From Rhizaria sp. SCN 62-66 (lineage: Eukaryota), in the NCBI GenBank assembly GCA_001724265.1, contig MEDY01000208.1, forward strand, positions 62,001 through 109,353: DNA of 47,353 nucleotides, read 5' to 3'. Below the pieces are notes generated by a model, which was not told the origin of the DNA, did no database searches, and worked only from the letters and a program-made list of their open reading frames with translations. Made by a program: the position numbers and the translations under genes. Positions 1-47,353 of this stretch are shown here, piece after piece. Each line of letters starts with the position of its first letter. Position 1 is the first letter of the stretch.

Positions 1-11
1 GCAACTTCACC

Positions 12-5232: not shown

Positions 5233-8200
5233 ATGTCGTCAGACATGCCCGATCGCTTTTACAAGCGCAACCGGGAGTTTCTGCCGCCCGTGACCGCCAC
5301 CGGTGCGCCGGGCGGTCTCAACGACGGCGTGCCGCCGCCTGACGCGACGCAGATGAACCGTACTCTCGAGTACCTGCGTTCCGACGCTCTGCGCGACAAC
5401 CCCGCCATGGCCAAACGCATCTTTAACTCCGACGCCTACGCCGCTCTGGCGCCGCGCCTGCACGCCACGACCGCGCTCGACAAGGAAGTCAACGCCGACG
5501 CTGGCACCCGCCGCTAGCAGCGCAAGCTCCAGGGCGACGTTGCCAAGGGCGGCCGCGGAGGCCGCTTCACCGCCGGCACAGTTGACGACGACATTGAGGA
5601 CATCTGGGACGAGCTCGAGTGCAATCGCAAGCAGGAGTTTGCTCAGCACGCGCGCGCCGAGCACGAGCGTTTCCAGCGCAAGATCCATGACCAGGAAGTT
5701 GTGTTCGCCGGTGAGGTTGAGAAGAGCAAGGCGGCCATCCGCAAGCGCGACTCGCCTGACATGCCCACGCACGCCTCCAACGTGTCCGCTATTGTCGGCG
5801 AGGGTAAGTCCAAGAGCAAGAGCAAGCGTAAGAGCGAGATCGAGACTCAGGAGATCGCTCCTGCGCCCCACGGCAAGACGATGCCCGCGCACATCCAGTC
5901 TCAGCCGCAGCAGTCGCACATTGCTGCCAAGTCAGCGCAGCAGCCGCAGCACACGCTGTTCGGCGCGTCCCTCGACGACGTCGACGCGCGCGCCCGTTTA
6001 CAGAGCGAGATGCGGCGCGCGAACCGCAAGCTCTCGGCCGCGATGGGCGAGCTCGACGGCGCCGTGGACCGGCTGAAGCGCGTGCAGAGTGACAGCAAAA
6101 ACCGCGACGCGCCCATCTCTGGCGCGACTCCCGAGGAGGCCGAAGCGCGCCGCTGCCAGCGCGAGAAGTGCATCCAGCGCGGCGTGTGCAAGAACACCGC
6201 CAGGTGCGCGCAGCTAAACAAGGAGATGGCTGCACAGAGTCAAGGCCAGTCGCACAGTCAGGGCCAGAGCAAGATCCAGCAACAGACGCAGGCGTGTGAC
6301 CGCAAGGGCACAATCTGCGCTGCGGGCACCTGCGACCGCTCTCTGTGCCAGGGCAAGATTGCGCACAGCGAGGTCGGCGGGACAAACACAAAGGAGATGC
6401 GCAAGGAGTGCACTAAGGCCAAGGAGATCGCCGCGGCCGCCGCTGCTATGGGAGCAATCAAGAGCGGCATGGACGCGGCGCCACTCCGCAGCAGCGCTAA
6501 GAGTGGCACTAGCAGCAGCAGCAGTGCTATTAACAAGGGCAAGCGCGGCGCGACCATGCCGGTGCGCAGCGCATTTGGTGAGGACACCACAACTGAGGAG
6601 TCCGAGTCCGACGCCAGCACCACAAGCGCCGGCACAAGCGACGTCAGCAGCACGACGAGCTCCGGCACCAGCAGCGAGAGCAGCGACAGCGAGGCCGAGT
6701 GGCAGCAAGTCCGCGGCACGCGCAGCAAGGAGCGCGCGATTCGCCGCCAGGAGCTTCGCCGCCAGCGCGGACCGGCGGCGGACGCGATGTCATCGCTGAC
6801 CGACGTCGCCGGCTTCCGCGCCAGTGCGCACAACGAGAACGAGCAAGAGTGCCTCGCCCGCCGAGCCAACGCCAAGGCCGATGCGGCTGCGTTGGGCGCC
6901 AGCGACTCGTGCTTCGCGGTTCGCCACGCCGGCGCGCGCGAGACCCCGCTGGAGGCGGAGGCGCGGTGGCAGCGGGAGCACGACGACGCGCTGTTTGCGC
7001 GCGCGGCTCGGCGCAAGGACCATAAGATTCGACGCGCAATCCAGGAGCAGGGGCTGCCGCTGGCGGCCGCTGTGGCCGCTGCGGGCGGCGCAGCCGTGCC
7101 GGTGCCGGTGCTGGCCGAGATTGCCAGGCCGTACCAGGCGACTCCGCTGCGGCTTGAGGGCGCAAGCAAGGAGTCGCGTGCCAAGGAGGTCCGCCGCGCC
7201 GAGCGGGCTGCGCGCCGCGCGGAGAAGGACGAGCGCCGCCGCACGCGCGAGCTGGGCCGCGACATCAACGCTCAGCCGCACTACACCGGTCTGTTTGAGC
7301 CGGGCCACGAACAGCACATCTGGGGCGAGCGTGACTACGCCCACCAACAACAACAGCAGCAGCAACAGCAGCCTCAGTATCAGCGCCAACAGCAGCGCGG
7401 GCTACAGCGCGAGCGTGAGGAGGAGTTCCCGCCCCACGGCCACGCGAGCGGCAGCGAAGCCGAAGCTGGACCATGCTGGGACGGTCTATTTGTGCCCGGC
7501 CACGAGCAGCACCTGTGGGGCGAGCGTGACCCTGACGCGCCTGTCTTCCACCCGCCGCACCAGCACTACGCGCAGCAGATGCAGCGCGGCCAGGGCCAGC
7601 AGCAGCAGCGGGCAATGCAGTACCAGCAGCAACAGCGCCCCATGCAACAGCAACAGCAACAGCATTACCAGCAGCAGCAGCCCCAACAACAGCAGCGCTC
7701 GATGCAGCAGCAGCAGCAACAACCGCAGCAGCCGCGCGGACAGCAGCAACAAGGGCTGCAGCAACAGCAGCAGTTGCAGCGCGGCAACATCCAGCGCGAC
7801 GGCCACATTGCAGGCTGCCCGCGCTCAACGCACACGAGCTCCGCCGGCACAACCGCAGCGCGAAGCGGCAGTGTGCGCAGCGGCAGTGACGAGGGCGGGT
7901 ATGATCCGCACACGCGCGCTGTATCGGAAGACGAATGGAGCGGCACTGATATGACGCTGCCAGATAAGCCCATGCCCACGTACCAAGGGCTCTTTGACGA
8001 TGTACGCTAAGAATTTAGTGGTGAACCCGGCATATCTACTATTTGCTTACTATATGATAGTATCATTGAGACACGTTGCAAATTTCTTTTTCATATCCTA
8101 CGTTTTCTATCTTTTCTTTGTTCCTCCTTGCGTAGAGTTCTGAGCAGCACCTGTGGGGCCACCAGGACCCCAACGCAGTGCATTACTTCCACCACCCCAG

Positions 8201-9824
8201 CCACATCCAGCAGCACGATCAGCAGCAGCAGCAGCAGCCGCAGTCTCAGCGCGGCCGCAACATGAGCGACTACGTGCAAAGCGGTGCGCACGCCACGCAC
8301 GCCGGTCACTTCCCTGCCGACGGCCGCAGTCAGTACATCGCTTCGCACGGTCACCCTGACCCTCGCAGTCGCGGGCACCCGGACGCTGGCGCGAGGCCGT
8401 TTTACCCGTCCAACCAGGCCAGCATGACTCAGCAGCAAAACATGCAGCACATGCAGCAGCAGCCGCAGCATCAGCGGCACCAGCGCGGACAGGCGATGCA
8501 GATGCAGAGCTCCAGCATCAACGGGCAGACGCAGTCCAAGATTAAGCCCGAGTCGAGCTCGACTAGCGCCAGCAGCAGCAGCGGCGGCAGCACGAACAAG
8601 TACGGATACAGTGCGTCGCGCTACGGCTACCCCGCGCAATGGCAGGGGGCGATTTCACCGCGCACCGCCGCCGCGGCAGCCCAGGAACGCGGCACTCAGC
8701 ACGAGCATTTCGTGCGCCAGCAACAAGAAATGCACCGTGAGCAGCACTTGCAGCAACAGCAACATATGCAGCAGCAGCAGCAGCAGCAGTTGCGGCGCTC
8801 CAGTGACTCCGCACAGCAGCCTCAGCAGCAGCGACTGCGCTCTCAGCAGGCGCAACAGCAGCAGCGCCCTCAGCACGAGCAGCACCAGCAGCACCATCAG
8901 CAGCATCAACAGCAGCAGCAGGGCGACAGTGACGTCAACGCCAGCGGCGAGCGCGTTCGCTACGACGGCCACAAGATTGCGATGCACATGGACACCTGGC
9001 GCGAGTTCGACTTCACCAAGGAGGACGACCCGATGCCGCGCTACACCGGCCTGTTTGCAGACGACGAAGAGCAACACCTGTGGGGGCACCGCGACAACCG
9101 CGGGCGCAGCACCGACCGCGGCGGGTACCGGATGTAGAGTGGCCGGCCGTCATCTCAACAGCACCCAAAGCAACAACAGCAACAGCAACAGCAGCAACAA
9201 ACTGCAATCCCTGTGGGCGCGGCAACTCAGGCCATGCGCAGCGTCGCCTCTGCGCTCCGCAGCGAGCATAGGCAGCAGAGTCAGCGCAGTGACCCCAGTC
9301 AGCAGCGTCAGCACAGTGCCTCTGAGCATCAGCAAAGTGACCGTGAGCAGCAGCAAAGCGACAACCGCGCTGCCGCTGAGGCAGAGTTCACCAGCTCCGG
9401 CCATCGGCACCGTGCGACGAGTAACATTGCTCACAGTCACGCACGGACCCACCACGGCGAGTTTTCGCGCTCGACCGGGCTGAGGCACGTGCCGGCGCTG
9501 GCCTCGACCACGCACATCGGCAACTTCAACGCAGCTGCTGGAGCTCATATCGGTCGTGTCTACCTTGGCCGTGGGCATGGAGACCGTGACCGTGAGCAGC
9601 GCGACCGTGAGCGTGAACGGCGTGACCGTCTCAGTGAGTCGGAGTACAGTCGCGCGTGCGAGGCCGAGCGGCAGCGACAAATGCGTGCCGTCGACTATCA
9701 CATGTCGCACAGTCATCAAGCACACGGCGGCGACGGCGAGCACAGGGGCCACCACGTTGTGAACCCGCACAGCTACTGCGTTGATAGCAAGCGGGAGGGA
9801 GGCGAGGTGCATTGGCGCCCGTAA
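5233..9824 (+). CDS. Gln-rich low-complexity protein (~1485 aa) with four GLF-x4-EQH[IL]WG repeats; 2 exons; two in-frame TAG codons
   Basis: Exons 5233-8001 and 8136-9824; intron GTACGC...cttgcgtag in phase 0. The splice rebuilds a full repeat copy (YQGLFDD|SSEQHLWGHQD). ORF pieces 5233..5517 and 5701..8010 share one frame, as do 8178..9137 and 9213..9824; each pair is separated only by a TAG (5515-5517, 9135-9137). Ends in TAA. Confidence 0.8.
5515..5517 (+). other. In-frame TAG, candidate sense codon
   Basis: CGC CGC TAG CAG CGC AAG CTC; the same frame stays open with coding-type codons to the intron at 8002. Confidence 0.8.
7282..9095 (+). repeat. Four copies of an 18-aa motif [YW]xGLFxxxxEQH[IL]WG[EH][RQ]D
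   Basis: Copies at 7282-7335, 7477-7530, 7981-8001 + 8136-8168 (split by the intron) and 9042-9095. Confidence 0.9.
8002..8135 (+). other. Spliceosomal intron (134 nt)
   Basis: GTACGC donor, AT-rich body, pyrimidine tract and TAG acceptor; removal restores frame and repeat motif. Confidence 0.9.
9135..9137 (+). other. In-frame TAG, candidate sense codon
   Basis: CGG ATG TAG AGT GGC CGG; the frame continues through a CAA/CAG tract to TAA at 9822-9824. Confidence 0.75.
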
Positions 9825-10185
9825 GTGTGCGCAAGGCCAAGCGACTGCTTCATATTGCAATAATGTAACAAACTAACGAATCTTGGAGATTTTTAAACGC
9901 GAATTCTCACAATATTGACTTTTAATTGCAGTATATCTCCGCGTTGACGCATATAACGGTTAAAGTAACATCACCAAGCGAAACACGCAGATCGAGTAGA
10001 TGTATTCTTGCTTTGAATTATGAACAGGTATTCAAGATCCGAAAATACATCAACATTTGTGTATGAAGATACAACGAGAAAATAAACATGAAAAACAAAA
10101 TATTTTAATCAAATCAAATCTATCAAAAAAAAATTGGTGGTCATCAGAAGTACCAAGCTGCATATAATACAATTTAAAGCTTAAC

Positions 10186-11877
10186 TTAGTGCAGACACAC
10201 GGTGCCGTCGTGGCGGCCCGGCTCGCCCTCCCAGACCTGCGCCGCGCCTGCGGGCCTCTCCTTGGGCACCGGCGACAGTGGATACGGTGCCTGCCTGTGC
10301 CTGCGGTCTGCGCGCAGCACAGGCTGCGGCGGCAGCAGCAGCGCCTCGAGCGGCCGTGTCACGAGCATTTCGCGCGCGCCGGCGCCAAGCACGGTCTCGG
10401 CCAGATGCGCGGGCACGCCGAGCACCTCGACCCAGTCCAGCGAAGCCGGGGCGCCGCGCAACAGCCGCAGCTTGATGAACCGCGTGGGCAGGTAGCCTGC
10501 GTTGAGCGCGGTGACTTTGCCGCGCGGGAGGCGATCATCGCGCGCTACCGTCACCCAGTCGTCGTCGGCGCGGCCGCGGAAGGAAACGGACAGCTCGGCC
10601 GCCGCGGTCGCGCGGTTGCTAAGCTGGACGAAGCCGACGAGCGCGGGGGAAGCGAGCTCAAACACGATTTCGTGGTTTGCGCCCGAGTGGGCCGCCCAGT
10701 GCGAGCGCGAGTCGCGCGCCAATAGTGACGAGGCGGGGGCGCGCGGGGACTCGGACGTGACGGAGACAATGCGATACGGCAACACGCCGAGCTTGCTGCG
10801 GAAAGCGCCTGTCTTGGCCGCGGGAGCGCGCTTCGGGGCTGCGCTGTTCGCGGCAGCGCTGGCGTGGGTGACTGCGGGGGGACCGGCGGCGACGGCGGAT
10901 GCGGTGCGGCCGTAGGGGTACTCGCGCATCAACGCCACCGACTCGGGCAAACGCGCGGCAGCAGTAGCAGCGGCGGCGGCGGCAGCGGCTGAGGCGGAGG
11001 AAGCGTTTACAGAGTGTGCGAACGCTGATGAGGAGAGCGCTGATGAGGAGAGACCGCCCACGCGAGGGTGGGCTGTAGTGTGACTGTGCGCAGGAGCCGT
11101 CGAGTAGCCGTGGGCGCGAAGTAAGGCGTCCGCGCTGCCGAAAGCGTGGTGATGGTGCTGATGTCCATTGGAGTGACTGTGAGCATTGGAGGTGTTTTCG
11201 TTGTGGACAGTGTACGAGTGTGCGTCGTCGTCATAGTCGTCATCGTACACGCCGTGACGATCGGGGTTCCGCTGCCGACTCGCCCCACCGGCACCACCAG
11301 CGGTGCTTCCAGGAGTATTTGCCGTGTGGAGAGCGTTGGGACTGAGGCCGAGGCCGAGGTCGGGGCGGGCGAAATCAGTCGCCATATGCGCCAGCAACGC
11401 AGACGCAGTTGTCGCGGTCAGTGGACAACGCACACCGGAATCAGCGGCGGCGTTCCGTTTGTTGGTCGAAGCGCCAGAGCTCAGAAACACGCTCGAGCTC
11501 GAGTTTGAGTTCGCGCGGTGTGAAGTGACCGTGGGGCGGGCGCTGCTAGGGCGGCCAGCTGCGGGGACAGAGCGGCGCGCGGACGAGGAGGACGCAACGG
11601 CCGAGACAGAAGAGGACGATGAAGAAGGCGTGACACCGTAGTAGCCACATGTGGCAGCTGGCGGGGGCGGGATGGGGCCTTGCGCACGAGCGGCGTTGTG
11701 GGCTGAGTGGAGCTGGGCGGTGACGGCCTTGATCTGGGCCATGTCGCGTGCGAACGAGGCGTCGTCACCGGAGTAGCTCTCGGACGCAGACGCCACCGAG
11801 GCGTGTAGACGAGATGATGCCGGTCGGCTGTGTGAGTGAGAGCACCGCGCGCCGTGGGCGTGCGAGTGTGAAGACAT
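10186..11877 (-). CDS. Protein with a Ser/Ala/His-rich disordered N-terminus and a C-terminal galactose-binding-like (jelly-roll, XRCC1-N-like) domain
   Basis: 563-aa ORF ending in TAA. Region ~10413-10782 reads LPYRIVSVTSESP...LL...SHW...IVFEL...VQLSN...RFIKLRLLRG...VEVLGV, the strand pattern of XRCC1-N/discoidin-type domains. Confidence 0.7.
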   Translation of the reverse strand: MSSHSHAHGARCSHSHSRPASSRLHASVASASESYSGDDASFARDMAQIKAVTAQLHSAHNAARAQGPIPPPPAATCGYYGVTPSSSSSSVSAVASSSSARRSVPAAGRPSSARPTVTSHRANSNSSSSVFLSSGASTNKRNAAADSGVRCPLTATTASALLAHMATDFARPDLGLGLSPNALHTANTPGSTAGGAGGASRQRNPDRHGVYDDDYDDDAHSYTVHNENTSNAHSHSNGHQHHHHAFGSADALLRAHGYSTAPAHSHTTAHPRVGGLSSSALSSSAFAHSVNASSASAAAAAAAATAAARLPESVALMREYPYGRTASAVAAGPPAVTHASAAANSAAPKRAPAAKTGAFRSKLGVLPYRIVSVTSESPRAPASSLLARDSRSHWAAHSGANHEIVFELASPALVGFVQLSNRATAAAELSVSFRGRADDDWVTVARDDRLPRGKVTALNAGYLPTRFIKLRLLRGAPASLDWVEVLGVPAHLAETVLGAGAREMLVTRPLEALLLPPQPVLRADRRHRQAPYPLSPVPKERPAGAAQVWEGEPGRHDGTVCLH

Positions 11878-12429: not shown

Positions 12430-13275
12430 TTAGAGCTTGGCCTGCAGGCGCTTGGCGACACCGACGGTGATTGTGGCGAGGGTCTTGCCAGTCTGCTTGT
12501 CAACAGCGCCGCACGTAATGGTGTCGCCGACGACAACGGGGCCGACGCCCGCGGGCGTGCCGGTGAAGATGCAGTCGCCTTCCTCAAGCGTGAAGAGCGT
12601 GGAGATGTGCGCAACGAGTTGGGGAACGCCGAAGAGCATGTCGCCGGTGTTGCCGCGCTGGCGCTGCTTGCCGTTGACGTCAAGCCAAAGGTCAACATTG
12701 GCCGTGTTGGTGACGGCAGAGGCCGGAATGAGGGCCGAGACGGGCGCGAACGTGTCCATGCCCTTGGCGATGGACCAGGGAAGGCCCTTCTTCTTGGCCT
12801 CCTCCTGGACCTCGCGCGCGGTCATGTCCAGACCGAGGAAGTAACCGGAGACGTGGGACATCGCGGACGCAACGGGGATGTCGCGACCGCCCTTGCCGAT
12901 GACGACGCCGAGCTCAACCTCGTGGTGAAGGTTGGTGCAGCCGATCGGCATCTCGATGCTGCCGGCGCCCGGGAGAAGGAACGAAGAAGGCGGCTTCAGG
13001 AACAGCACCGGCGAAGTGGCTATGCACAAAATAAGAGTTTTATATTGACGATTCAAGTAAGTATGCACTGGTGGTTTCCGAATAATGTCTGTTATCAATG
13101 CTATCAAGAGAAACCGTGATTCGGGGCAAGGACAAGGTCGGCTATAAGAATGGCTCAGAAGGGGGATTTTTAGGGACGTACGAACAGGGTTGTTCAGCTC
13201 CTTGGCGTGCTCCGCGAAATTGCGGCCGACGCAAACAATCTTGCGGCAGTGCTTGGTGAAATTAGCGATGCTCAT
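12430..13275 (-). CDS. FAHD1: Fumarylacetoacetate hydrolase domain-containing protein 1-like (acylpyruvase/oxaloacetate decarboxylase), 227 aa, 2 exons
   Basis: Exons 13275-13182 and 13019-12430. Motifs KIVCVGRNFAEHAKEL, PVLFLKP, HHEVELGVVIG, GLDMTAR, PWSIAKGMDTF and FTLEEGDCIFTGTPAGVG. The splice yields NNPVP-TSPVLFLKP. Ends in TAA. Confidence 0.93.
   Translation of the reverse strand: MSIANFTKHCRKIVCVGRNFAEHAKELNNPVRTSLKIPLLSHSYSRPCPCPESRFLLIALITDIIRKPPVHTYLNRQYKTLILCIATSPVLFLKPPSSFLLPGAGSIEMPIGCTNLHHEVELGVVIGKGGRDIPVASAMSHVSGYFLGLDMTAREVQEEAKKKGLPWSIAKGMDTFAPVSALIPASAVTNTANVDLWLDVNGKQRQRGNTGDMLFGVPQLVAHISTLFTLEEGDCIFTGTPAGVGPVVVGDTITCGAVDKQTGKTLATITVGVAKRLQAKL
13020..13181 (-). other. Spliceosomal intron (162 nt, 3n, no in-frame stop)
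   Basis: GTACGT...tgtgcatag; removal restores the conserved FAH-family alignment. Confidence 0.9.
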
Positions 13276-13570
13276 GACGACGATCACAATCTATCACAAC
13301 CCAACATCTCTAGTCACGTCACCTAGACACGACCCAGCAACGATTTTCCGCCTCCTCTCGAGGTGTGAGTAACGACTCGATAAACAGACTGCAATATCAA
13401 GATGATGCCCTCGTCAGTCGAAGTTTTTGCATTGATTATGAATTATATAGCTTACAATCTACTCTTATCTTTCTTAGCACTTCTTCAGCCCTTTTGTTTA
13501 CCCACAGAAACCTTCTTCTTAGAACAACGTAAAGCCCAGTCGCAGCCCGTGTTGTCGTTGTCCACTCACA

Positions 13571-16500
13571 ATGGACTCCACTCCGCCGTCCCCGGTGTTT
13601 GCGGACGGACTGGCGTCGCGCAGCAACGCCAACCTGGGTTCTATCTCCCCGCTTTCCTCCCGCGAGCCCTCAACCCGGGTCCAGCCCTCTGCAGCCGCCG
13701 GTGACTCCGCTGTTCTGTCTCCCAAGCGCGCCTCAGACTCTGCCGCTCCCGCCGCCGTCGGTAGCCGTGCCGAGGCACCCAAGCCTTCTGCCGCCCCGGC
13801 AGTTGACGACGACGCCGGTGGCATGTTTGGCTTTGACATCTCCGACGCTGACGACGACGCTGACGTCGACACTGGCGCCGGCGCGGGCGTCGTTGACGAG
13901 TATGCTCATGCCCGAGCTGCTGCCGCAGTTGCTGCTGAGCCTGAGGCGCCTGCTGCGGCGCCTTCCGAGGCACACTCCGCGTCTTTTACGGCGCCCGATA
14001 CAACAGCTCAGGTTGCGACTGAGCCTGCCTCTGCTGTTGACGCTCACTCTGATGCTAAGAGCGGCACAGATACCTTTGCAACCGACGCGAACTCCTCTGC
14101 CCTAGGCGCTGGCGCTGACGCTGACGCTGACGCTGATGTGGATGCCGGCGGTCTCGCTTCTGTAGCATCAACTGCTGTCGGCGAGATATTCCCTCTCGCT
14201 AGTGCCCCAGACTCTGAGGCTGCGCACGCCGACGCCGCCGCTGACTCTGTCTCCATCGCAGCATCCGCGAGTGCGGCGCCCGCGACTGGGGCTGGGGCTG
14301 CAGACGCGACTCCCGCGCCTGGTGTTACTTCGGCTGACGCTGCGGCGGTGGTGAAGCACGGCCCCGAGCTGCCGCCGCCGTCCTCGACCGTGACCGCGAC
14401 CGCGACGGGTGTTGCTGGGCCTGTGACCGGGACTGCCAACATGACCGACGCCGCTGCCGCCGCCGACGACGACTCTGCCGCTCACACCGGCACCGAGCCG
14501 CCTCTGTCCGACTCCGCGTCGCTCGACAAGGCTCTCAGCCCCCAGTTTGATCCTTGGGAATCCGATGCTGCCGGTGACGCTAATCGGGATGATGGTAAGG
14601 GTAACACTGCTACGGTGTCTGTACAGGATGACCCGGAGCGTGAGTATGCGGTTCCCATCAAGCCAGCGCCGCATATCAAGCCCTCATACAGCGCCGAACA
14701 CCCTGCGAACCCCACTCCCGCCGCCGCCGCTGAGGCTAAGGCCGTCCCTGCGACTGCAGCTGCGTCGCCCGCTGAGGCGGCGGCCACTGCCACTGCAACA
14801 GCGGAGACTCCAGCGAAGGCGGAGACTGCAGGCAAGGCGGCTCCTGCGGCCAGCAACGCGGGGACCGAGACCCCGGCTAAGACGGCAACGCCGAAGAGTC
14901 CTGCTGCCAAGGCGACGTCGCCTGCCAAGACGACTCCCACTGCGGCGGCGTCTCCGGCCAAGGCTACTCCCACTGCGGCAGAGACTCCCTTCAAGGCTGC
15001 TCCTGCAGCGACAGCTGAGACATCGGCCAAGCCAGCTCCTGTAGCGTCCTCGGCGGCTTCACAGCAGCCTGTACATATGACAGAGCCCAGCTCCCCAAAG
15101 GTTGATGCTAAAGTTGAGACGAAGCCTGGGACGAAGCCTGAGACTCAAGAGACGAAATCCGAGGCCAAGGCTGAGCGTGAGAAGGAGGCAGATACGTCGC
15201 ATACGAAGGCTGAAGCTCAGACCGAGACAAATGCTGAGGCTGCGGTCGGCAATGACTTCGATATGGATACTGAGCTTGACGCCGCCCCTGCCTCTGACGC
15301 CAAGAAGTCCGGGCCCGCAGCGGCTTCAGCCAGTGCCTCTGCAAAGCCTGCTGCCGATGCTGAGCCCGCTGAGCCTTCAAGCGCCGCAGTGTCGTCCCCT
15401 GCAAAGCCTAATGCGCCCTCTAAGGCGGCTCCAACCAAGGCTGCCCCGACAAAGGCTGCTCCTGCCAAGCCTGCTTCTGACGAAAACTCCGCTGCTGCTG
15501 CTGCGCCAAAACCTACTCCTGAGCAATCCGCTGTTGCTGAGAAGCCTGCTAAGCCCGTTATTGCTAAAGCGGAGCCCGTCGCGAAGCCAGCTGCTGCCAC
15601 GGCTGAGCCCACTGCCTCGTCAGCCGATGTTGCCCCTGCCTCGCCCGCTAAGAGCGCCTCCGCCAGTCCCCGCGATGGCGAGAGCAAGCCTTCCGAGGCG
15701 AACATCACTGAAACGACAACAGAGAGTGCGAAGCCCAGTCCCGCGAAGGCCAGTCCCGCAAAGGCCGCGCCAACCAAGGCCGCGCCAGTGAAGGCTGCGC
15801 CTGCAAAGGAGGCCCCCACTAAGGCGGCGCCGACGAAGGCTGCGCCTGCCGCTACAACGACGTCTCCAAGCAAGCCTGCGCCGACGAAGCCGACCCCCGC
15901 CAAGCCCTCCGCTACCCCGAAGGCCAACAGTACACAGAATGCCAGCCCCGTGGCCTCAGCTGCTACTGCATCGACAACGACGACGACGACTGAGACGGCT
16001 AGCGGCCACCAGTACAGCGTCGACAGCGCAGGCGACGGCTCCGGTCAGATCACGTCCCTCACGGGCGACGTATACACCGGTGCGTTCCGCGCGTGGCGGC
16101 GCCACGGCCGCGGGCTGCAGCGCTGGGCCGGGGGCGAGCGCTTCGAAGGGTCGTGGGTTGACGACCAGCAGAGCTGCGGTGTATTCACGGACGCGCAGGG
16201 CCGCCGCTGGGCCGGCGACTTCCGCAACAAACGTGTGCGGCAGTTGCGCGATGACGAGGACACGGCCGCTGCGATTGAGGAGGCGGCGGCTGCGGATGAC
16301 GCCGCCAACGCCGAGCCTGGCAGCAGCGGCAACGGCGGTGGTGAAGGTGAGGGCAAGATGGTCGTTGCGTCTGATGAGAGCAAGAAAGCGGCCAGTAAGC
16401 AAGACCGTGAGCGTGAGCGTCGCGTCAACAACCAGCAGCTGCAACAGCAACAACAACAGCACCGCAAGCAGCAGCAGCAACAGCAGCAGCAGCAACAGCA

Positions 16501-28174: not shown

Positions 28175-28383
28175 CTAGACGCAGAACAAGTAGCAAGGAA
28201 AACGACGTAAAACGAGCAATTCAGTTAGAGTCAAGTTGTGTTGTGTGTCAAAACGAGGGGGTGTTTATTCGGCTGGTGTGCCGGCACCCCCGCCGTAAGT
28301 TATTAAAAAGAAAACACATCACAAGAACGCTAAATATAGAACCGGTAGAAATAAACAATGTCGTGAAATTCACCACCAACGAA

Positions 28384-34003: not shown

Positions 34004-34046
<43 letters not shown>

Positions 34047-37000: not shown

Positions 37001-39243
37001 GTGTTTGTGGTGCAGGGTTGAGTCGCCGCCGTTGCCGTCGGAGTCGTCGGAGTGGGCGACTGACCCGTCGGAGTCGTCGCGCCCGCTGCGGCGGTGGTGG
37101 ATGTCGAAGTCTTCGTCGTCGGCAGCGTCGCCGTCCTCGTCCTCGTCGCGAGCCGCGCTGGCGGCCCCGTCGCCGTCGCCGACGTCAACCCCATCTGCGC
37201 TCTCACCGTCATTCTCGCCATCGTCGCCGTCGCCTGCCGTAGCGTCGGGATCGGGAAGGTTCAGAGCGCCAACATTAGCCTTGACCGCGTTCGCGCTCGT
37301 CGACCCCACAGCGGGCGAAGTCGCCGTCGCAGGCGAACCAGCGGTCGCGGGAGAAGCCGCGGTGTCGTGATGAGGGGGTTTCGCACTACCGCCACCGCCG
37401 CCGCTGGGGACAACCGATGGCGTCGCAGCCGCAGGGGGACAACTCATTGCAGCGGCAGCAGCCTCGCCAGTGCCAGTGTCGTCGTCATCGTAATCGAGCC
37501 CCAGCGTGACGTTGGCGCTGCCACTGACGTCGCCGTCCCCGTCCGCGTCGGGCTCAGCCTCGGCGCCCATCGTGGGGAAACCGCTGGGGATCCCCACGGC
37601 CACGTGCGCCCGCCGCGGCTGTGTCCCGCTCTTCTTCCCCTCGCCCTCAGCGCCGCCCGCACCAGCGCCGGCGCCGGCGGCACCATGCGCGCCGCTGCGG
37701 GGGAGGCCGCGGCCGGAGCGGGGCAGCCCGAGCCCGGAGCGTCCGGCGCCTGACCGGGCCTGGGCAGAGGCGTGCGCGGCGCGGTACGCAGCTTCGGCGG
37801 CCAGTGCTGCGTCGTCGTCGTCGTCGTCATTGTTGTTCGCGGCGGCTGCGGCGACAGCGGCTGACTTGGCAGCAGCCGCGGCGTCCTCGTCCTCGTCATC
37901 GTCGGCATTGAGGTCGTCATCATCATCGTCGTCGTCGACTTGGATGCCCTCGGCGACAGTATTGGTCGCACCGCCCGCGGCGGCGGCGTAGTCGTCGAGG
38001 TCCAAACCGTCACCGCCTGAGCCAGAAACAGCATTAGCGGCGGCGACAGCGGCGGCAGCGCCCGCGGCGGCCGCGGCGGCGGTGGCGGCGGCCGCGGCGG
38101 CCGAGTCCCCGGTGGCAGCAGCGCCAGCGCCGCCGCTCATCATAGTGCTGCGGCGGCGCTGCCTGCGTGCCGCCGCGGCCGCCGCGGCGCGCTCCTGCTC
38201 CTTGACGGCGGCGATGGTGGCGGCGATCACGTCCGTCTGGCTCATGCCGGGGACTTGTACCTCGGCGCCGCCGCCCAGCATCGCCTCCGCGGTCTCTGTC
38301 TGCACTGGCGGAGTCACAGGAGTCGCGGTCGGCGCGGCGGCGCTCGGGTCGGCCGTGGCCTCTGCAGCAGCTGTGGCGGCGGCGGCAGTGGGGGAGAGGG
38401 TGGTGAGATTGGTGTGAGCGGCCGCAGCGGGCTGCGCCGGACTAGGACTGGCGCCCACGGGCACCGCAGGCACTGCGGCGGGGGTCACGGGTACCGGAGC
38501 GGGGGTCACGGGTACTGGCAAGGGACGCGAGGGCCCGCTGTTGAGCACGATGCCTGCATTGGCGGCGGCGATGGCCTTCCGGCGCTCACGCTCTGCCTTC
38601 TCAGGATCCATCCCAGCAGCAGCAGCAGCAGCTGGAGCCGCAGCAATGGCGGTGCCGAGAGCGGCGTGTTGCTGGCCCGCGGCGTTAGAATTGGCGGCTG
38701 CATTAGCGGCGGCGTTGACGCTGTGGGCGACACTGGGGGCCGGGCTCGGCACGGGCGCAACGGGACCGTAGTTGCTGTTGTTGTTGCTGATGTTGACCGG
38801 CATCGCTGCGGCCATGACGTTAACCGGGGCGAGACCGGGAGAGGTGACGAGGCCGCCGGCGGTTGTCGGCATCAGCATAGCGTTGTTGGATGCGACTGAC
38901 CCGGGGGCCGGGACGGGAGCGAAACCGGGGAGCGCGGCGGCGTAATACGCGTTCATGTTGCTGTTGTTGTTGTTGTTATTATTGTTAAAGTTGTTGTTGA
39001 CGAACGCGGGGTCAGTCGGCATCGGCATAGGGTAAACGCCAGGATTGTTGTTGTTGATGTTGCTATTATAGGGCACCTGTTGCACCGGCATTGCAGCGTT
39101 GTTCGCAAAGCCTTGGTTCATACCAGGCATCCCCGGTTGCTGAAGCTGTTGCTGCTGCTGAAGCTGAGGCTGAGGTTGGAAGCCCTGCACTGGCGCGGCG
39201 GCGGCCGCAGCAGTAGGAGTCTGCGCCTGTTGCTGTTGCTGCA

Positions 39244-39287
<44 letters not shown>

Positions 39288-39293
39288 TGTTGC

Positions 39294-39325
<32 letters not shown>

Positions 39326-40742
39326 AGCCTGTGCATGAGCCTGAGCTTGTTGTGCGTTTGCAGTGGCGTGGGCGGGTGTGGGCGCGGCCGAGACCGGCGT
39401 GGGCGCTGCCGCCCCGGGCAACGGGTGCAGCTCAACGTCCATATTGTCGTCAGCCGAGGAGTATGTCAGAAACGGGTGCCGCAGGAGATCGTGCGCAGAT
39501 AGACGGAGGAACTGAGGGAACATGCAGAGCTCGACAAAGGCGCGCACTTCGCGGGACTTAATGCGGGCAAGCACGGCGGGGCGCTTGCCCTGGGTCACTT
39601 GGCGCCAAATCTGCACGGGGGTCTTGCACTCCTATGAAAGTAAAACAGATACAAATTCAAGAGATAGATCGACAGGTGAGAATATAAAGCAAGATAGAAT
39701 ATCCATAACAAAAACTGACATCGAAATAGATTACAATTATTTCATTAAAAAAAAAAAGATCTCGTCGAGGTTAGGCGATTCTGACGTACTTGGAAAGGGT
39801 ACTCCTTGGTGGCCATCTCGAGCACACACATGCCGAAGGCGTAAATATCGACCTTCTCAGTGTAGTCCTCGTTGTACAGCTCTGGTGCCATGAACTCCGG
39901 CGTGCCCAAGACGGACGCACGCGTGGCGTCTGATCGCTCTGCAGAGAGGCCGAAGTCGCCGATGCGGATCTCGCCGGTGTTGCCGTTGATGAAGATGTTG
40001 TCGCACTTGAGGTCGCGGTGGATGATCGGCGGTTCGTGCGAGTGCAGGTAGTCAAGCCCGCGCAGGATCTGCACGCACCACTTCTTCAGCACCTTAAGCT
40101 TGATGCACTTCATACGCGAAACGTACTGCTTGAGCGTGCCGGATGTGACGATCTCGGTGGTGAAGCAAATCTGTTCTTTGTCGTCGGTGGTCCAGGCGTG
40201 GTAGAAGTTGATCACGTGGTCATGTTTGAGCAGCTTGAGGATGTCGGTCTCTTTGCGGATCCGCTCCTGCTCGTGGGGCGGCATGCGGCGCAGATCGACT
40301 GTGTTCCAAGCCACTTCTTTGCCCGTATCGGTGTCGTAGGCGAGCCAAACATCTTTGTACGAGCCGCGACCTAACTTATGGTCAAACTAAACACATGCGG
40401 CGCGGTGTGATGCAAGTGTGGGTTGGCAATAGAGTCGTTGTGGGCGTGATTAGGGTTCGCCGGAGAGGTTTGAGGTGTTAGATATGTCAAGAAGGGGATC
40501 AAGGGGGGTGGAGAGAGCGTATGAGTGTAGATCTAACAGAAATCAAGATGAATAACCCTAACAGTAACTCCGGGGGTTACAATAGTCCGAATTCTAAAGT
40601 ATGGATAGAGAATGCAAGTGGTATAGAGTTGAAATTGCGACATTGTGCGTGATTGACGTACGCGCACGTATTGCGTGCCACCGTCGAGCACGGGAGACCA
40701 TTCGACCTCGGTGAGCGCGTCGCGGTTGATGGGCGCGGCCAT
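32615..40742 (-). CDS. WNK: WNK (With-No-lysine) Ser/Thr kinase with a very long Gln/Ala-rich tail and a CCT/OSR1-C-like domain, ~2564 aa, 3 exons
   Basis: Exons 40742-40662, 40386-39790 and 39631-32615. LGRGSYK carries the catalytic Lys in the Gly loop and EVAWN replaces VAIK. Also PPIIHRDLKCDNIFINGNTGEIRIGDFGL, SVLGTPEFMAPE and YPFQ|ECKTPVQIWRQVTQG. CCT-like VCLEF...KQVRFVFDQAQDTARGIAQEM at ~35930-36170. Ends in TAA. Confidence 0.93.
32618..35620 (-). repeat. Dense CAG/CAA (polyQ) and CAGGCY (QA) microsatellite tracts in the WNK tail
   Basis: Many (CTG/TTG)n runs on the + strand; another tract lies at ~39230-39325. Confidence 0.9.
39632..39789 (-). other. Spliceosomal intron (158 nt)
   Basis: GTACGT...tttcatag, phase 0; restores the kinase C-lobe. 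Confidence 0.92.
40387..40661 (-). other. Spliceosomal intron (275 nt)
   Basis: GTACGT...gtgtttag, phase 0; gives QYVR|FDHKLGRGSYK. Confidence 0.88.
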
Positions 40743-41524
40743 GGGGGCCAGTGCGGGGCGCGCGCACGCAAGCGGGCGAGCTTACGCAGTGGCTTGGGGC
40801 GCGAAAGGGCGACGACGCGGGGCGAGCGGGAGCCGAGAAGGCTGAGAAGAGAGGGAGGGGAAAGAAGGGGCCGCCGGGCGGGAGGGCCGGGGGAGCACCT
40901 CGCAGAGGCTGGGGCGGGAAAAAAACGCGCGGGATCGGCGTGTTCGTACCGGAGCGCTGCTGAAGAACTGGATTAGGGATGACAGATGCGAAGCAACGGC
41001 GAGAAAGTGAGCGAAGGAGAAGGAGCACACCGCGTCCAGTGGAGACGTCTCTGAGGGCGCGCGAAGGACTCGCGCGATACCATAACGTCCGTCGGCTCAC
41101 ATATTATTTGCACTCCAAATAGCAAAACGATGCGTTTGAACAACTCCCCATATTTCTGAACATGTATGACGTCCACACGACTCGCATTTCCCAGAAAACA
41201 TGTCTCCACGTCGGGTGCGGCTTGACTTTAAACCAGGCTCGCTCGGTCCTGGTCCAAGAGTCTCGACCGAGGCCCGATCTTTGATCATCTACACCGTCGT
41301 CTATTGATCGTCAATAGCTCTAACAATGTTTTTTTGCGCAGTCACGCTTTAAGATCCGTTTATATTCAAGTGTTTATTCTCTTAAAATGTTTTCTTCCCC
41401 TCACTGTGCCTCGCTTACCAGTGCCCTCGTTTTGACCGTTGATCTCTTCACCTCAGCCACAGCTCGCGCACCGCACGCACGACAAGCCATCGCTTCACTA
41501 TTTGACACCGACACAGGGCCTCGC

Positions 41525-43147
41525 ATGTCCGACCGTTACCGCTCCCGCTCTCGTTCTCGCTCGCCCCAGCGCCAGCGTGCTGCTGCGGGCGCCCCCGCTG
41601 CGCCCATGACTGAACGCTCACGCTCACGCTCCCCAACTCGCTCTCGCTCCCGTTCGCGGTCACCACGGCCACACTCGCGGTCGCAGTCACCTCGTGGTGC
41701 TTGTGCTCACAGTCGCAGTCGCTCGCCGGTGCAGCGCCCCCGTGGAGTCTCCCGCTCACAGTCACGGTCACGCTCACCGTCACGGTCGAGGTCACCGTTA
41801 CGGTCGAGGTCACCGGCTCGTGGTTCCAGTCGCGGCCGCGGCCGCGGCCAGAGCCGCGGCCGCGGCCAGAGCCGTGACCGCGATCAGAGTCGTGACCGCA
41901 GTAGCCGTGACCAGGAGTACGACCCTCGTCATGACAGCCCACCCCGGTCCAACGCCTCGTCGAAACCCCCCACAAACACCAACTCGCACAACAACCGCAG
42001 TCTCAGCCAGAGTCCTCGTGACCGCAGTGCGCGTGACCGTGAGAGTACTTACAGCCCGCGTCGTCGTCGTCATCCGCGCTTTCGCTCACGGTCGCGCTCT
42101 CGCTCACGGTCGCCTGCGCGCTCACGGTCACCTGCGCGTCGTTCACAGTCACCTGCGCGTCGCTCACGGTCACCTCGGCGCTCACGGTCACATTCGCGCT
42201 CACGGTCAGTGAGTCCCGAACAGCGGCGTCGTCGCTCTGTGTCACCGCCGCGCCGTGGCAACCGCTATCGCCGCGACAGCCGGAGCCGCAGCCGCAGCGG
42301 CCGCAGCGGTAGCCCCCGTCGTCGACGCAGCCTCAGCCGGAGCCGCAGCCTCAGCCGGAGCCGGAGTCGGAGCCGCAGCCGGAGCCGCAGCCGCAGTCTC
42401 AGCCCCCGGGGCCGTGGCTACAGCCCTCGTGACCGCAATGACCGTGAACGCGACTATGACCGTCGCAGTGGCTCTTATAACAATAAAGACAACAACAACG
42501 GCCATAGCCGTCGCCGCAGCCGCAGTCGTAGTGGTGAACGGCATCCTAGCCACAACAACCGCTCAAACTCGAACCAAGGCGACAATGGCAAGACTAGTGG
42601 TGGGAAGCAGCTTGCTTGGCTTAAACCCCGTCCTGGCGCTTCAAACAACAACGATACGAACACCTCTGCAAAGAACACTACGACTGCTGCTGCTGTTGTC
42701 AAGCCCCCTGTTGACTCCGCTGCCGCGGCCGCCGCGGCCGCTGCTGCCGAGTCTGCCGCTTTTGTTGCCCAGTTTGGCTTTGGCGGCTTCGGGCCCGGCG
42801 GCACTGTCGGCGCAGTCAAGCTCCGCACGGTCCCCGGCTCCGGCTCGATTCCGCAGCAGCAGCAAGTTAAGCCGTCCTCTGGCGCCGCGCCGCCGCCGCG
42901 GTTCGGCCCCGGGTCCGGCGAGCGGCTGATGGAGGTCGTGGCGAACGACCGTGTGGGCAAGAAGGTCCGCGTCAAATGCTACCCATCCGACACCATCCTG
43001 AGCGTGAAGAAGCTTATCTCCGCACAGACCGGTGTGCGAGCGGAGAAGATCCGCCTGCAGAAGGGGACGCAGGTGTACAAGGATCACATCCGGTTGATGG
43101 ATTATGATGTGCCCGATGGGATGGGGTTCGAGATGCAGTACAACTAA
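41525..43147 (+). CDS. UBL5: RS-domain protein fused to a C-terminal UBL5/Hub1 ubiquitin-like domain, ~540 aa
   Basis: The last 73 codons (42926-43144) read [36 protein letters not shown]...[23 protein letters not shown] and align without gaps to UBL5/Hub1. They follow long RSRSRSP repeats in the same frame. ATG 41525 was preferred to 41387 because the sequence between them looks non-coding. Ends in TAA. Confidence 0.9.
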
Positions 43148-43476
43148 GGGGCTCCGCAGCCCTTACTAAGGTAAGGGAGACGCATAACTGAAAACGAAGC
43201 GCAAAGCTTTGTGCGTTAACATCCGAGATTGAGCCATGTATATTGATAAGAATGAATACATAGTTTTGAAAATATTTATTGAACCAGTATGTACTGGCAT
43301 GTGCAAGATTCGTGGCCTTTGCAGTGGGCATTAGCTAGATAACAAAGTTAAAGACCATGTGACAAGGAAGTACTGGCTTGAGACAAGTCGCAAGCTGGGT
43401 TGGGAAGCAGGCGTGGTGACAGGCGCCCAATGACAATTGGCTTGCAACACAAGACTGAAATACGCAAGGACATTGT

Positions 43477-43917
43477 TCAAACGGCAGCGGGCGCCTCAGC
43501 CTTAGCAGCAGCAGCAGTGGCATGAGCGGCAGCCACAGCCGCAGCTGCCGCGGCGTCGTTGTCGGCATAGACCACAAAATCGATCTGAATAGCGTACTTC
43601 TTAGCAGCCGCAGCAGCGGGCTTAGCTGCGTCGCCGACTTTAGTTGCCGACTCTGCGGGCTGCTGCATTGCGGAGCCAACTTTGCAGGCGTAGACGGCGT
43701 GCGGGAGCCGGCGCTTGATGATCTCGGCCAAAGTGACCGTGTGCGCGATCGCGGAATTGACGCCGTACAGCGACACCTTGCGCACGCGGGGCTCGCCGGG
43801 AGCCGAAAACGTGGGCGCCGCAGTGGTGAGGCGGGACAGCGCGTAGTCAAGAAGCTTGGAGCGCGGACACGTGGCGCTGACGAAGATAACGTCGGGATCG
43901 CCGATGTCGGTCGCCAT
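43477..43917 (-). CDS. Alba-domain nucleic-acid-binding protein (Alba/Rpp20/Rpp25 superfamily), ~146 aa
   Basis: DVIFVS...LLDYALSRL...VSLYGVNSAIAHTVTLAEIIKRR...AIQIDF matches the Alba fold pattern (GxAIxxxVxxAEI[IL]KRR). Ends in TGA. Confidence 0.75.
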   Translation of the reverse strand: MATDIGDPDVIFVSATCPRSKLLDYALSRLTTAAPTFSAPGEPRVRKVSLYGVNSAIAHTVTLAEIIKRRLPHAVYACKVGSAMQQPAESATKVGDAAKPAAAAAKKYAIQIDFVVYADNDAAAAAAVAAAHATAAAAKAEAPAAV

Positions 43918-45036
43918 CCGGGATCTCTGCGGGAAACAAGGCACAGGGAAACACAATGTCCGTCAGTATACGTTTGAATAATAAATCCAAAGTTTATATA
44001 AATATATCTATAAGTGATGTTAATAATACTTCATGAATCAACGCATATGCCGCTCATGACAACTTTTTGATATGGTCAGTCGATGAGCCCATCCTGACTG
44101 TGTCGATAACCTGTCTGTGTGCGCTAGATTACGTCAATCCTGTCAGTGGCGGCACGGCTGCAGTAAATCAGGCAACAGCGCACGCCCAGACACCTGTGAC
44201 CTGCTCCGGCTCTCGCTCCGCCACAGCTGCATCAGCATCAGTTCTTGTGGCGACGCCGGTGCCGCAACTAGTTCCAGTGCAGCAGAGCACGGTGCGAGTC
44301 CTGAAATGATGGAGGCGCCGTTGGGCTGGCGTCTCTTTGCGTCGCTGGTGCCCGCCGTGTCTGGCGACTTTATTTCGGCGCCCAGTACGCTCTACGGTCT
44401 GTCCTGACAGTTTCCAAGATGCCCAGTGCGGCCACGACTGGCGGGGCGCCTGGAACCGCACGCAGGGGCTGTGGCGGGAATCGGCGGGGCTGGGGTGCAC
44501 ATGGGATCGTTCAAGGCGCTCGCGCAACCATGAAACATCCAGCAACAGCAGCACAACTACAGTCCATGATTATATCAGACTTATCTGTCTTCATATAGTA
44601 TATGTCATCCTAGCGATCGGCCACGAGTGCGGCAGGCAGAACCCAAACAACGATTTTGAGGGATATCGTACTCAGATGGCATTACGCCAACCATATTATT
44701 GTGATATCGCACGCAAAATGGATATGGCTTTAATTTATTTTGATATAGAAAGGATGGGCGTGCATTTTACTCGAGTAAATTACGATATTGCTCCCCAGAA
44801 TCCGGAAGAGCATCACTAAAACGTCATCATCGTGGCAGTGTGATCGTCAGATAGACTCTTAAGAAGAAAATTACAATTGACTCAACCGTTTTTACATTGT
44901 ACCTCTTTGTTGTATCCTCTTTTCCATCGTTTCGGTTGGGGGCCGATCATTTTTCCCTGGGTCATCCTCTACCAACCTTACCTTCGCAACTTATTGTATT
45001 ATGTGTTCGCGTTTCGCGATTTGATTAGACGCCCCC

Positions 45037-47353
45037 ATGACATCTAGGGCCTTGAGCTGCAAGATATGTGGCAAAAACATGCGGCAAACTGGCAAAAGCC
45101 GCCCACAAAGTCTTTGTCAGTTCTGTCTCAAGGTACGAAGCTTCTGTAACAAGTTTGTCAGATTCACCGGATTGTTTTTAAATCTGTCTATTTCGAAGCT
45201 GACACTGTTGGAAAATCCCACAATCTTCACTCGCGTGTGTTCTTCTATTTTCTTCTGAGCTTAGTCTGAGCTTGAGCTTCAAGATGAGTCCAGGTTACCA
45301 AACGGCACCAGCGACAAAGCCGATCTGTCCAGCACTATGAGCGGCCTAGTTGAGTTATCTCCCAACACTACTATTCATCAAAACCCAAGTGTACGTCATG
45401 CTTCTAATGTCAACCAAGACTTGTGACGCATTCTGTTTACTATCATACACCCTACAAGTCACCACCCGCTCCCCTAGGCGTAGAGCACTAACTAACAAGT
45501 TCATCTCCCCCCAATTTGCGATGAATGAATAACACGAACGATTTCTAGCGGTGTTACAAACATGACGAGCCCGTGCTTATGATTTACTGGTGCGACATTT
45601 GTGTCAGCGTCATCTGCAGCCACTGCGCACTTATTAACGGTGAACACAAAGACCACGCCATCCGCACCGTTGCCGCCAAGCATGCTGAGCTCCGCTCTCA
45701 CGCTGCCACACTTACTCCCCGCATTGCCACACTGGCACAGCAACTTAAGGATGAGATCGCACTCACCGAAGCCCTACGCACGGAGACCGAGGCCAAGCTG
45801 ACCACACTCTCAGCGACAACTGCGCAGTATTTATCCCACGCACTTGCTCCCCTGACAGCGTTGGCAAAACAACTGCGGCTCTTTCTGTCACAGCGCACCA
45901 AGCAAGAACATGATGTTCTAGCGCGGGCGCAAAACACACTTGCGAGCATGACTGGCGCCACCGATGCGCCAAGTATAACACGCCTCGGTCGGCTCCTAGC
46001 GTCACGGCCCGTCTGGCCTTTCTCAGGAAGCGTTGATCTCGATGACAGTGGACCCAAAGAGCAAGCGATCAATAATACGCTTGCCAGCACACCCTGGGCT
46101 GCTGCACGTGCTGCGTTTTAGGCAGCGACCACCGATGCAACTGCTGGATTAGTACCGCGCCAGGTCAAGTGCGAAGCTGATGTGCCACTCGCCGATTTGC
46201 TCTCTGCATCTAGCGGCGACGGCTTCGTTGCTGAGATTGGCACGGTTGAGCTGTGCGGCGTGCGTTTCACGTGCTCTGTGCGCCGCGGCTGCGGTTGCGG
46301 GGCTTCCCCGTGGATCCTGTCTCAACAGGCACAACAGGAATCGAGTGAATATAAAGCCGTTTCTGCCACATTTGTTGAGGGCACACCGTCCAGTGCAAAC
46401 GCATACGCAAGTTCAAGTCTTGCGACATCTGCGACACCTTTTTTTCAGTGCAAATGTGCGCTTGTCGGCGAGGTTACGGCGAATATTGTGTCAACAAGCC
46501 TTGCTGCAAGCTACGACGCCTGCGGAGCACGTGCTATGGCTGTCGCCAAACTGATTGAAACTGAGGACAGCGACGACGTTGAAGATGGCATTGGCAATCA
46601 AATCAAAACAAAGGAAACTGGCGAGAAGACCACGGCGACTTCTGGTTTAGTTGACTGTGGCGACGTTGTCAGTGGAAACACCTGTGAGTTTGGCACTGTC
46701 CGTGCAACCTTTACGGTGCTGCGCAATAATGGCTGCAAGAGCAGCAAAGCTCAGTCCGACGATAGCAACGCTGATAGCTCTGGTCTTGTTGGCACAATGC
46801 TGCTCACAGATATCAATAAGCGCATCACTGCTGTTGTCCTTGCACAGATGACGGACGCGCAGGCAGTGGTGACAGCGTCTACTGGTGTAAAATGGTGTGT
46901 ACGTGTCGCTGTTGCGTTCCTGGACGTTTTTCATGAGAAACGCGCGCTGCATATGCTGGCGGAAACTGTTCCGGTGGACTGGATTTTGAGGACTGAAAGT
47001 GCTGCTGCAGAGGCAGACGCAGCTGCAAAGGCTTCTGCGCAAGCCGCAGCAAAAGTCGCCGAAAGGGCAGCTTTAGAAGCGGCCTTATAGGCGCCATGGA
47101 AGTCAGTTGTACTGTCTGGTGATTGGGAGGCCGCATTTGATTCACACATTGCTTGCAGCCTAGAGGAGTGTGGGTACCCGCGTCGACAGGCAAAATTGGA
47201 GCCACGTGAGTACACCCCGTCTCCTGCTCCTGTGAGGGATCATGGAGTCCCACCTCCTGCGGCACTCACGCTACTACAAACAAAGGCTCGCGAGCGCATC
47301 CTGGCATATAGTCTGAAGCGTTTGAAGAAAGAGCACATGACATCTGATTTGGT
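45037..47353 (+). CDS. B-box zinc-finger + coiled-coil (TRIM-like) protein, 3'-truncated by the window; two in-frame TAG codons
   Basis: Exons 45037-45132, 45265-45390 and 45549->47353; both introns are GTACG...TAG in phase 0. N-terminal CKIC-x15-CQFC; B-box CYKH...WCDIC...ICSHC...HKDH followed by a helical segment. The frame is interrupted only by TAG at 46119-46121 and 47088-47090 and is open to the window end. Confidence 0.75.
45133..45264 (+). other. Spliceosomal intron (132 nt)
   Basis: AAG|GTACGA...ttttcttctgagcttag, phase 0. Confidence 0.7.
45391..45548 (+). other. Spliceosomal intron (158 nt)
   Basis: GTACGT...actaactaac...atttctag; places the first B-box Cys/His in frame. Confidence 0.8.
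46119..46121 (+). other. In-frame TAG, candidate sense codon
   Basis: GCG TTT TAG GCA GCG ACC; the same frame is open for 322 further codons. Confidence 0.7.
47088..47090 (+). other. In-frame TAG, candidate sense codon
   Basis: GCC TTA TAG GCG CCA TGG; the frame is open for 87 further codons to the window end, with no shift to AT-rich UTR composition. Confidence 0.6.

Follow-up and report, generated by a model that had tools for sequence, protein, structure and literature searches.

A 47,353-base stretch of eukaryotic DNA from contig MEDY01000208.1 (the window, analysed over its whole length) contains two protein-coding genes that carry TAG codons in frame: gene A (5233-9824, plus strand) and gene B (from 45037, plus strand, running past the window edge). 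We favour, with modest confidence, the reading that UAG in this uncultured organism is a sense codon, still little used and either young or inefficiently decoded, and that UAA and UGA end genes. Termination at the in-frame TAGs appears unlikely because they lie in spliced, abundant messenger RNA (mRNA) and in conserved domains, because all in-frame stops counted in four genes (these two and two relatives) are TAG and none of the four has a frameshift, and because TAG is missing from gene ends. The four in-frame TAGs are real; those of gene A are present in DNA and in mature mRNA, within continuous conserved coding sequence, and we infer that translation passes through them and by what means. 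The window's four TAGs taken by themselves are weak evidence, and the case for UAG as a sense codon becomes significant only with evidence from outside the window.

In-frame TAG codons in two genes

TAG stands in frame at 5515-5517 (codon 95, exon 1) and 9135-9137 (exon 2) in gene A and at 46119-46121 and 47088-47090 in gene B, all on the plus strand. These codons had been reported by an earlier sequence-only reading of the window, and its positions proved correct when checked. The frame stays open for 828, 228, 322 and at least 87 codons beyond the TAGs at 5515, 9135, 46119 and 47088, respectively, and none of the 11 gene models contains an in-frame TAA or TGA. The intron-aware models of that reading are also sound, with the gene-A intron (8002-8135) matching exactly the stretch missing from a complementary DNA (cDNA) contig. 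Its statement that no phase-compatible GTACG intron removes the TAGs holds for gene A, whose cDNA keeps both, and is supported for gene B by paralogues that align gap-free through both.

The weakness of the four codons on their own lies in the local composition. TAG makes up 72% of the one-step nonsense paths in CAG-rich gene A and 40% of those in gene B, so the chance that four of four random nonsense codons would be TAG is ~0.08.

A further TAG at 45546-45548 was considered as a fifth in-frame codon and rejected. It is an intron acceptor: six related metagenome loci (L001-L006, described below) all have a TAG at this position, and the sequence upstream of it is divergent.

Gene A is transcribed with both TAGs

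Gene A comprises exon 1 (5233-8001), which begins at the first AUG of the mRNA, a phase-0 intron of 134 nt (8002-8135, GTACG...TAG, 36% G+C content, hereafter GC) and exon 2 (8136-9824), which ends in TAA at 9822-9824. Four sequencing runs were compared over 4400-10200, among them a cDNA library (X4) and DNA from a different study (X3). A 4,690-nt contig from X4 (record 9, depth 210), with adapter sequence at both ends, spans 5222-8001 joined to 8136-10002, the intron having been excised at GT..AG. In the intergenic bins flanking gene A the depth of X4 is 0, and the intron is removed; the contig is therefore a mature transcript. It retains both TAGs, and its single mismatch to the window is an A>G at 6533. 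Contigs of X3 DNA cover the TAGs at 5515 and 9135 with 0 differences, and no alternative letter is listed at either codon in any of the four runs. Sequencing error, splicing-out and editing at the majority level are excluded for gene A because X4 cDNA and X3 DNA both keep the TAGs. The comparison of RNA with DNA suggested by the sequence-only reading thus has a clear outcome at these two sites, where the cDNA consensus is still TAG.

The transcript has further features of its own. The A>G difference at 6533 could be explained by a strain difference or by editing. The mRNA extends ~178 nt past the TAA at 9824, to ~10002, and only ~11-20 nt of the cDNA contig precede the start codon, pointing to very short 5' untranslated regions (UTRs). 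Runs containing gene A hardly differ from the window and so offered no strain variation usable for a selection test in this gene.

Homology on both sides of the first TAG links the two parts of the reading frame. Searching 1.84 billion representative proteins with gene-A residues 1-420 (HMMER) gave two matches, P0135 and P0136. The first is a public 90-residue fragment, the gene-A N-terminus, which ends exactly at TAG 5515 because a standard-code gene caller cut there. The second is a 348-residue distant homologue with 39% identity over 137 residues and no gap at TAG 5515. Residues 51-94 of P0136 match the 94 codons before this TAG (expectation value E 1e-4), and its residues 98-151 match the 81 codons that separate the TAG from the following ATG (E 2e-10), the latter match including the best-conserved block, GDV.K.GRGG....G...DDIED. 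The two sides match P0136 independently and collinearly; therefore one conserved domain straddles TAG 5515. Codon usage agrees in the same frame, scoring 0.47 per codon before the TAG and 0.60 per codon after it. Downstream of the second TAG, the 228 codons of 9138-9821 have 61-65% GC with the codon-position pattern GC1>GC2<GC3 in frame, and GC drops to 40% right after the TAA at 9822-9824. A word search restricted to proteins of 508-1,619 residues found no gene-A homologues.

Between 7400 and 9100, gene A also contains a repeated motif, Y-x-G-L-F...E-Q-H-[LI]-W-G-x-R-D, set between long polyglutamine tracts. The intron at 8002-8135 interrupts one copy, and the motif had no match in Pfam.

Gene B belongs to a family with further in-frame TAGs

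Gene B is modelled with three exons. Exon 1 (45037-45132), predicted from the sequence, encodes a zinc-finger-like N-terminus of the form CxxC...CxxC; exon 2 (45265-45390) is predicted in the same way, with other in-frame acceptors possible at 45271, 45277 and 45289; and exon 3 (45549-47353, running past the window edge) encodes a B-box followed by a family-specific region. The protein collection contains eleven homologues (39-78% identity), and their alignments continue across both TAGs. The column of TAG 46119 holds E in seven of them, K in two, and D and G in one each, and the paralogue codons there are GAG (four times) and AAG. At TAG 47088 the column is Glu in P0004, P0008, P0010 and locus L003, within the motif ALEA[AV]L-E-AP, and the codon is GAG in both L003 and L002. 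The sole GTACG in exon 3, at 46899, is not followed by a drop in GC.

A scan of metagenomes yielded nine loci (L001-L009). L006 covers 168 residues of gene B at 100% identity and is the same gene, and L001-L005 are copies with 85-90% nucleotide identity. For two family proteins, P0006 and P0009, the longest contig listed is 23,918 nt in each case. They probably share one contig, so the copies are probably paralogues, and the gene-B family is probably multi-copy.

In-frame TAGs recur among these relatives, with three in L003 and one in L002. The L002 codon sits four codons before the conserved C-terminal FRPV, and the public protein P0009 ends at it. L009 has one in-frame TAG in a polyglutamine run, which was kept outside the count. 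No in-frame TAA or TGA occurs in the tblastn alignments of L001-L006. L008 has three stops in its alignment, including an in-frame TAA or TGA, and was excluded from the counts as too distant (27% identical to P0006 over the part that aligns) and probably intron-bearing. The count therefore covers eight in-frame stops (two in gene A, two in gene B, three in L003 and one in L002), and all eight are TAG, in four genes that are free of frameshifts. The probability of this outcome is ~0.002 when the TAG shares of gene A, gene B, L003 and L002 are multiplied (0.72² x 0.40² x 0.40³ x 0.45), and a pooled estimate gives 0.007-0.015. One L003 TAG, at alignment column 34, faces GAT, GAC or AAC in all paralogues. 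It is easier to explain as a codon that evolved as sense, because two substitutions separate TAG from each of these codons. CAG stands opposite two L003 TAGs.

Selection downstream of the first TAG was assessed from private single-base changes, for which the neutral non-synonymous share is 74%. In gene B, 21 such changes are synonymous and 26 are non-synonymous (P under neutrality 0.003). In L003 the corresponding counts are 13 and 16 with four sequences (P 0.023) and 11 and 6 with five (P 0.0009). L001, which has no TAG, shows 17 and 13 (P 0.0003), and L002, whose one TAG is near the end, 23 and 16 (P 0.00001). There is thus a synonymous excess downstream of the first TAG in both gene B and L003, which argues against old pseudogenes and is compatible with recent ones.

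Proteins of the gene-B family share the zinc-finger N-terminus, the B-box and an Ala-rich repeat, and are encoded in lower-GC DNA (51-59% in the loci). No match to the family was found in the prokaryote genome collection or among viral contigs. In L003, one family copy adjoins a large receptor-like protein, encoded on the plus strand at 2-7522 by a 2,506-codon open reading frame (ORF) with Sushi, TIG, ephrin-receptor-like and TRP-channel-like domains that ends in TAA.

The observed gene ends are TAA or TGA

The ten complete genes of the window end in TAA (seven) or TGA (three) and never in TAG, as the sequence-only reading had stated. GC falls after each of the ten stops, steeply after most. 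The TAA ends lie at 9822-9824 (plus strand, gene A), 10186-10188 (minus, XRCC1_N-like gene), 12430-12432 (minus, FAHD1-like gene), 18211-18213 (plus, SHIPPO repeat gene), 18494-18496 (minus, a 3,226-codon ORF), 32615-32617 (minus, WNK-like kinase gene) and 43145-43147 (plus, ubiquitin-like domain gene). The TGA ends lie at 4377-4379 (plus, GC 0.61 before and 0.42 after), 28384-28386 (minus) and 43477-43479 (minus, Alba gene). TAG 17306 was tried as a gene end and rejected, being out of frame after the intron at 17158-17270.

Ten non-TAG stops alone are weak evidence from a small sample, a caution already voiced in the sequence-only reading. The loci add four gene ends, two in TAA (the L003 ORF and L009) and two in TGA (L002 and the minus-strand ORF of L007), which brings the tally to nine TAA, five TGA and no TAG. 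With equal odds for TAG and TGA, five TGA among the five non-TAA ends would have a probability of ~0.03.

Sense codon, leaky stop or nonsense mutation

The sequence-only reading had left three routes past UAG side by side, namely a sense codon, editing or readthrough, with UAA and UGA kept as stops. Homology, the cDNA, the TAGs of relatives and the gene ends support the sense or readthrough part of that proposal. The editing part is not supported, the cDNA consensus being TAG at both gene-A sites.

Several observations weigh against UAG as an established sense codon. Its use is very uneven. Gene A (1,486 codons) and gene B (675 codons) have two TAGs each; the remaining nine window genes, together 11,333 codons long, and the 2,506-codon ORF of L003 have 0, which makes ~13,800 other codons free of TAG. 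The clustering of the four window TAGs in two genes has a probability of ~0.02. Overall, the window has ~0.3 UAG per 1,000 codons, confined to fast-evolving or low-complexity genes, and the proteome-wide use of UAG that is typical of fixed reassignments is not seen here. The FAHD1 and kinase domains, two well-conserved domains of the window, are free of TAG. All seven TAG sites that could be compared fall at variable positions, none of them on a strongly conserved residue. The residues facing the TAGs differ from site to site (E, E, D/N, Q, Q/L, S and V), a diversity that random nonsense hits would also give. Neither a tRNA gene in the window and L001-L009 nor, in 78 kb of window and loci (L006 and L008 left out), a match to any Rfam family was found.

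Other points against the sense reading concern single genes or samples. A frameshift near 2790 in L001 indicates that pseudogenes or assembly errors occur in the gene-B family, and the ratio of non-synonymous to synonymous changes is somewhat higher in the TAG-bearing copies than in L001 (13:17) and L002 (16:23). In gene A, the codon-usage score after TAG 9135 fades towards the gene end (0.37, 0.12 and 0.03 per codon), and this TAG alone would equally fit a recent truncation. The X3 contigs reach the two gene-A TAGs only 2-8 bases from contig ends, and the 14 gene ends are a small sample. A young or ambiguous state of the code is kept in play because TAG is absent from the nine other window genes and the L003 ORF.

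The alternative that survives best, which we hold to be unlikely but a serious contender, is that UAG is ambiguous. eRF1 would still recognise it, and a near-cognate or low-abundance suppressor tRNA would read through it substantially, as in the 'ambiguous intermediate' stage. A leaky UAG would be avoided at gene ends and tolerated in a few dispensable or low-demand genes. It explains all that reassignment does and also the rarity and clustering of TAG, and it agrees with a non-synonymous share that is slightly higher in the TAG-bearing copies. It sits less easily with the structure of the genes themselves: gene A would need two readthrough events and L003 three, so that losses would multiply, and gene-A mRNA is abundant despite what would be a premature stop upstream of an intron. 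UAG-CARYYA is an example of a stimulatory readthrough motif. The six bases 3' of the four window TAGs (CAGCGC at 5515, AGTGGC at 9135, GCAGCG at 46119 and GCGCCA at 47088) reveal no common readthrough context.

We regard as improbable the explanation that the code is standard and that the TAGs are nonsense mutations in recently inactivated or truncated genes, comprising gene A, gene B and the L003 and L002 copies. Sequence rich in CAG and GAG mutates preferentially to TAG (72% in gene A, 40-45% in the family), the gene-B family is multi-copy and fast-evolving with one frameshifted copy, L001, and the diverse residues opposite the TAGs, the lack of TAG in other window genes and the unremarkable probability of the window's four TAGs considered alone all suit random inactivation. 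The wider count does not, since eight of eight in-frame stops are TAG across four genes (P ~0.002) and none of these genes is frameshifted. Pseudogenes generally carry more indels than nonsense substitutions. The synonymous excess downstream of the TAGs also argues against this explanation, as does gene A, which is spliced, abundant as mRNA and identical across independent samples. The gene ends speak against it as well, with TAG in 0 of 14 and TGA in all five that are not TAA.

It is very improbable that the TAGs are altered or removed before translation by RNA editing (for instance UAG to UGG), by unseen introns or by assembly or sequencing error: we found no evidence in support, and although low-level editing would be compatible with contigs that drop minority variants, the X4 cDNA consensus is TAG at both gene-A sites with a sole joint at 8001|8136, independent X3 DNA agrees with no alternative letter in four runs, and the paralogue alignments of gene B are gap-free at the TAGs, with its only exon-3 GTACG at 46899 lacking a drop in GC.

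A possible decoder and the encoded residue

If UAG is a sense codon, ribosomes would translate it as an amino acid, and UAA and UGA would be the sole terminators. By analogy with described cases (PMC5304391, PMC11687900), the decoder would likely be a tRNA with the anticodon CUA, which would pair with UAG and not with UAA. Weaker recognition of UAG by eRF1 may possibly accompany it, again by analogy. The rarity of UAG would fit a young reassignment or inefficient decoding.

Judged from the alignments, Glu and then Gln appear to fit the TAG positions best. A crude BLOSUM62 ranking over the seven sites, to be read as a ranking only, gives Glu 8.2, Gln 5.4, Lys, Asp and Ser ~1, and Leu -11.0. A more specific proposal, which we advance tentatively and consider doubtful, is that the window comes from an undescribed eukaryotic lineage at an early stage of UAG capture, with the codon purged from gene ends and starting to appear inside genes, perhaps as Glu, and with UAA and UGA as stops.

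Comparison with known codes

Nuclear codes that split UAG from UAA are rare; those in the cited accounts come from a single rhizarian, a single fornicate and a small number of ciliate lineages (PMC5304391, PMC11687900). In the rhizarian exLh (Sainouroidea), UAG encodes Leu and UAA and UGA are stops, with 384 in-frame UAGs reported in 71 genes, many at conserved Leu positions (PMC5304391). As in the window, only UAG occurs in frame, genes end in UAA (the majority) or UGA, and UAG use differs strongly by gene class. A tRNA with the anticodon CUA was proposed as the decoder in exLh (PMC5304391), as we propose here by analogy. The window differs from the published picture of exLh in its low UAG frequency, in never having UAG at a strongly conserved position and in the poor fit of Leu (-11.0, against +8.2 for Glu).

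The fornicate Iotanema spirale reads nuclear UAG as Gln (PMC5304391). There UAG alone is reassigned, as we propose here, and UAA is likewise the main stop; Gln is the second-best fit in our alignments. According to the same account UAG is widely used in Iotanema, unlike in the window, where moreover Glu scores above Gln.

In phyllopharyngean ciliates UAG encodes Leu or Gln and UAA is the preferred stop (PMC11687900). These ciliates resemble the window in their preference for UAA and in having been found in metagenome data, and they would share with it a UAG uncoupled from UAA. They differ in their proteome-wide use of UAG and in the suppressor tRNA(CUA) genes described for two genomes (PMC11687900). 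The window, set against them, has coding sequence of 61-67% GC, long genes and conventional GT-AG introns.

Two further systems, an oligohymenophorean ciliate in which UAA and UAG encode different amino acids (PMC10553269) and Blastocrithidia nonstop, in which UAR encodes Glu (PMC12153298), are precedents for a UAG whose meaning departs from that of UAA. In both, UAA is also reassigned, whereas in our material it is the main terminator (9 of 14 ends). Our literature searches, which were not aimed at that combination, returned no report of UAG as Glu with UAA as a stop.

Other features of the window

The window is eukaryotic, with long genes on both strands and few introns. Coding sequence has 61-73% GC, compared with 27-40% in introns, UTRs and intergenic DNA, a contrast so sharp across the window that gene borders can be read from GC alone. 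Several studies of bioreactors, wastewater and microbial fuel cells have the sequence in their metagenomes. It is present in runs X1-X7; the small portions seen in runs X8-X11, and the gaps in coverage in X7 and X8, were given no weight as evidence. Domains recognised in the window include FAA_hydrolase (FAHD1-like), Alba, SHIPPO repeat, XRCC1_N, ubiquitin-like, B-box and protein kinase. Among named proteins, the best matches of the FAHD1 protein reach only 44-46% identity and are spread across fungi, an amoebozoan, a choanoflagellate, an ichthyosporean and animals. A search with this protein for further contigs of the organism gave bacterial and archaeal relatives only, at no more than 39% identity.

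GTACG forms the 5' start of all six definable introns, at 8002, 17158, 45133 and 45391 on the plus strand and at 39789 and 40661 on the minus strand, an invariance that might be of use in identifying the lineage. The introns at 8002 and 17158 both carry GTGAACCC within their first 30 bases. The SHIPPO repeat gene (plus strand) consists of 13523-17157 and 17271-18213, separated by the intron 17158-17270. A kinase gene lies on the minus strand at 32615-40742, with exons at ~40742-40662, 40374-39790 and 39631-32615 and introns at 40375-40661 and 39632-39789. The 2,338-codon ORF that ends at 32615 on the minus strand is its last exon, and its second intron interrupts the kinase domain. From its motifs we take this kinase to be WNK-like; no search returned that name. 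The stretch from the Alba gene to gene B includes a GC-rich island (44080-44560) that lacks a clear frame signal and to which no gene is assigned.

Significance

Standard-code gene callers truncate the proteins of this organism, as seen in P0135, which stops at TAG 5515, and in P0009, which stops at the L002 TAG. Each new code in which UAG is uncoupled from UAA tests ideas on how stop codons are captured. If confirmed, the case described here would be a further reassignment of UAG alone, possibly less far advanced than those of exLh, Iotanema and the phyllopharyngean ciliates. With UAG seemingly gone from gene ends and very rare inside genes, this organism could show the early phase of reassignment that theory predicts and that is seldom seen.

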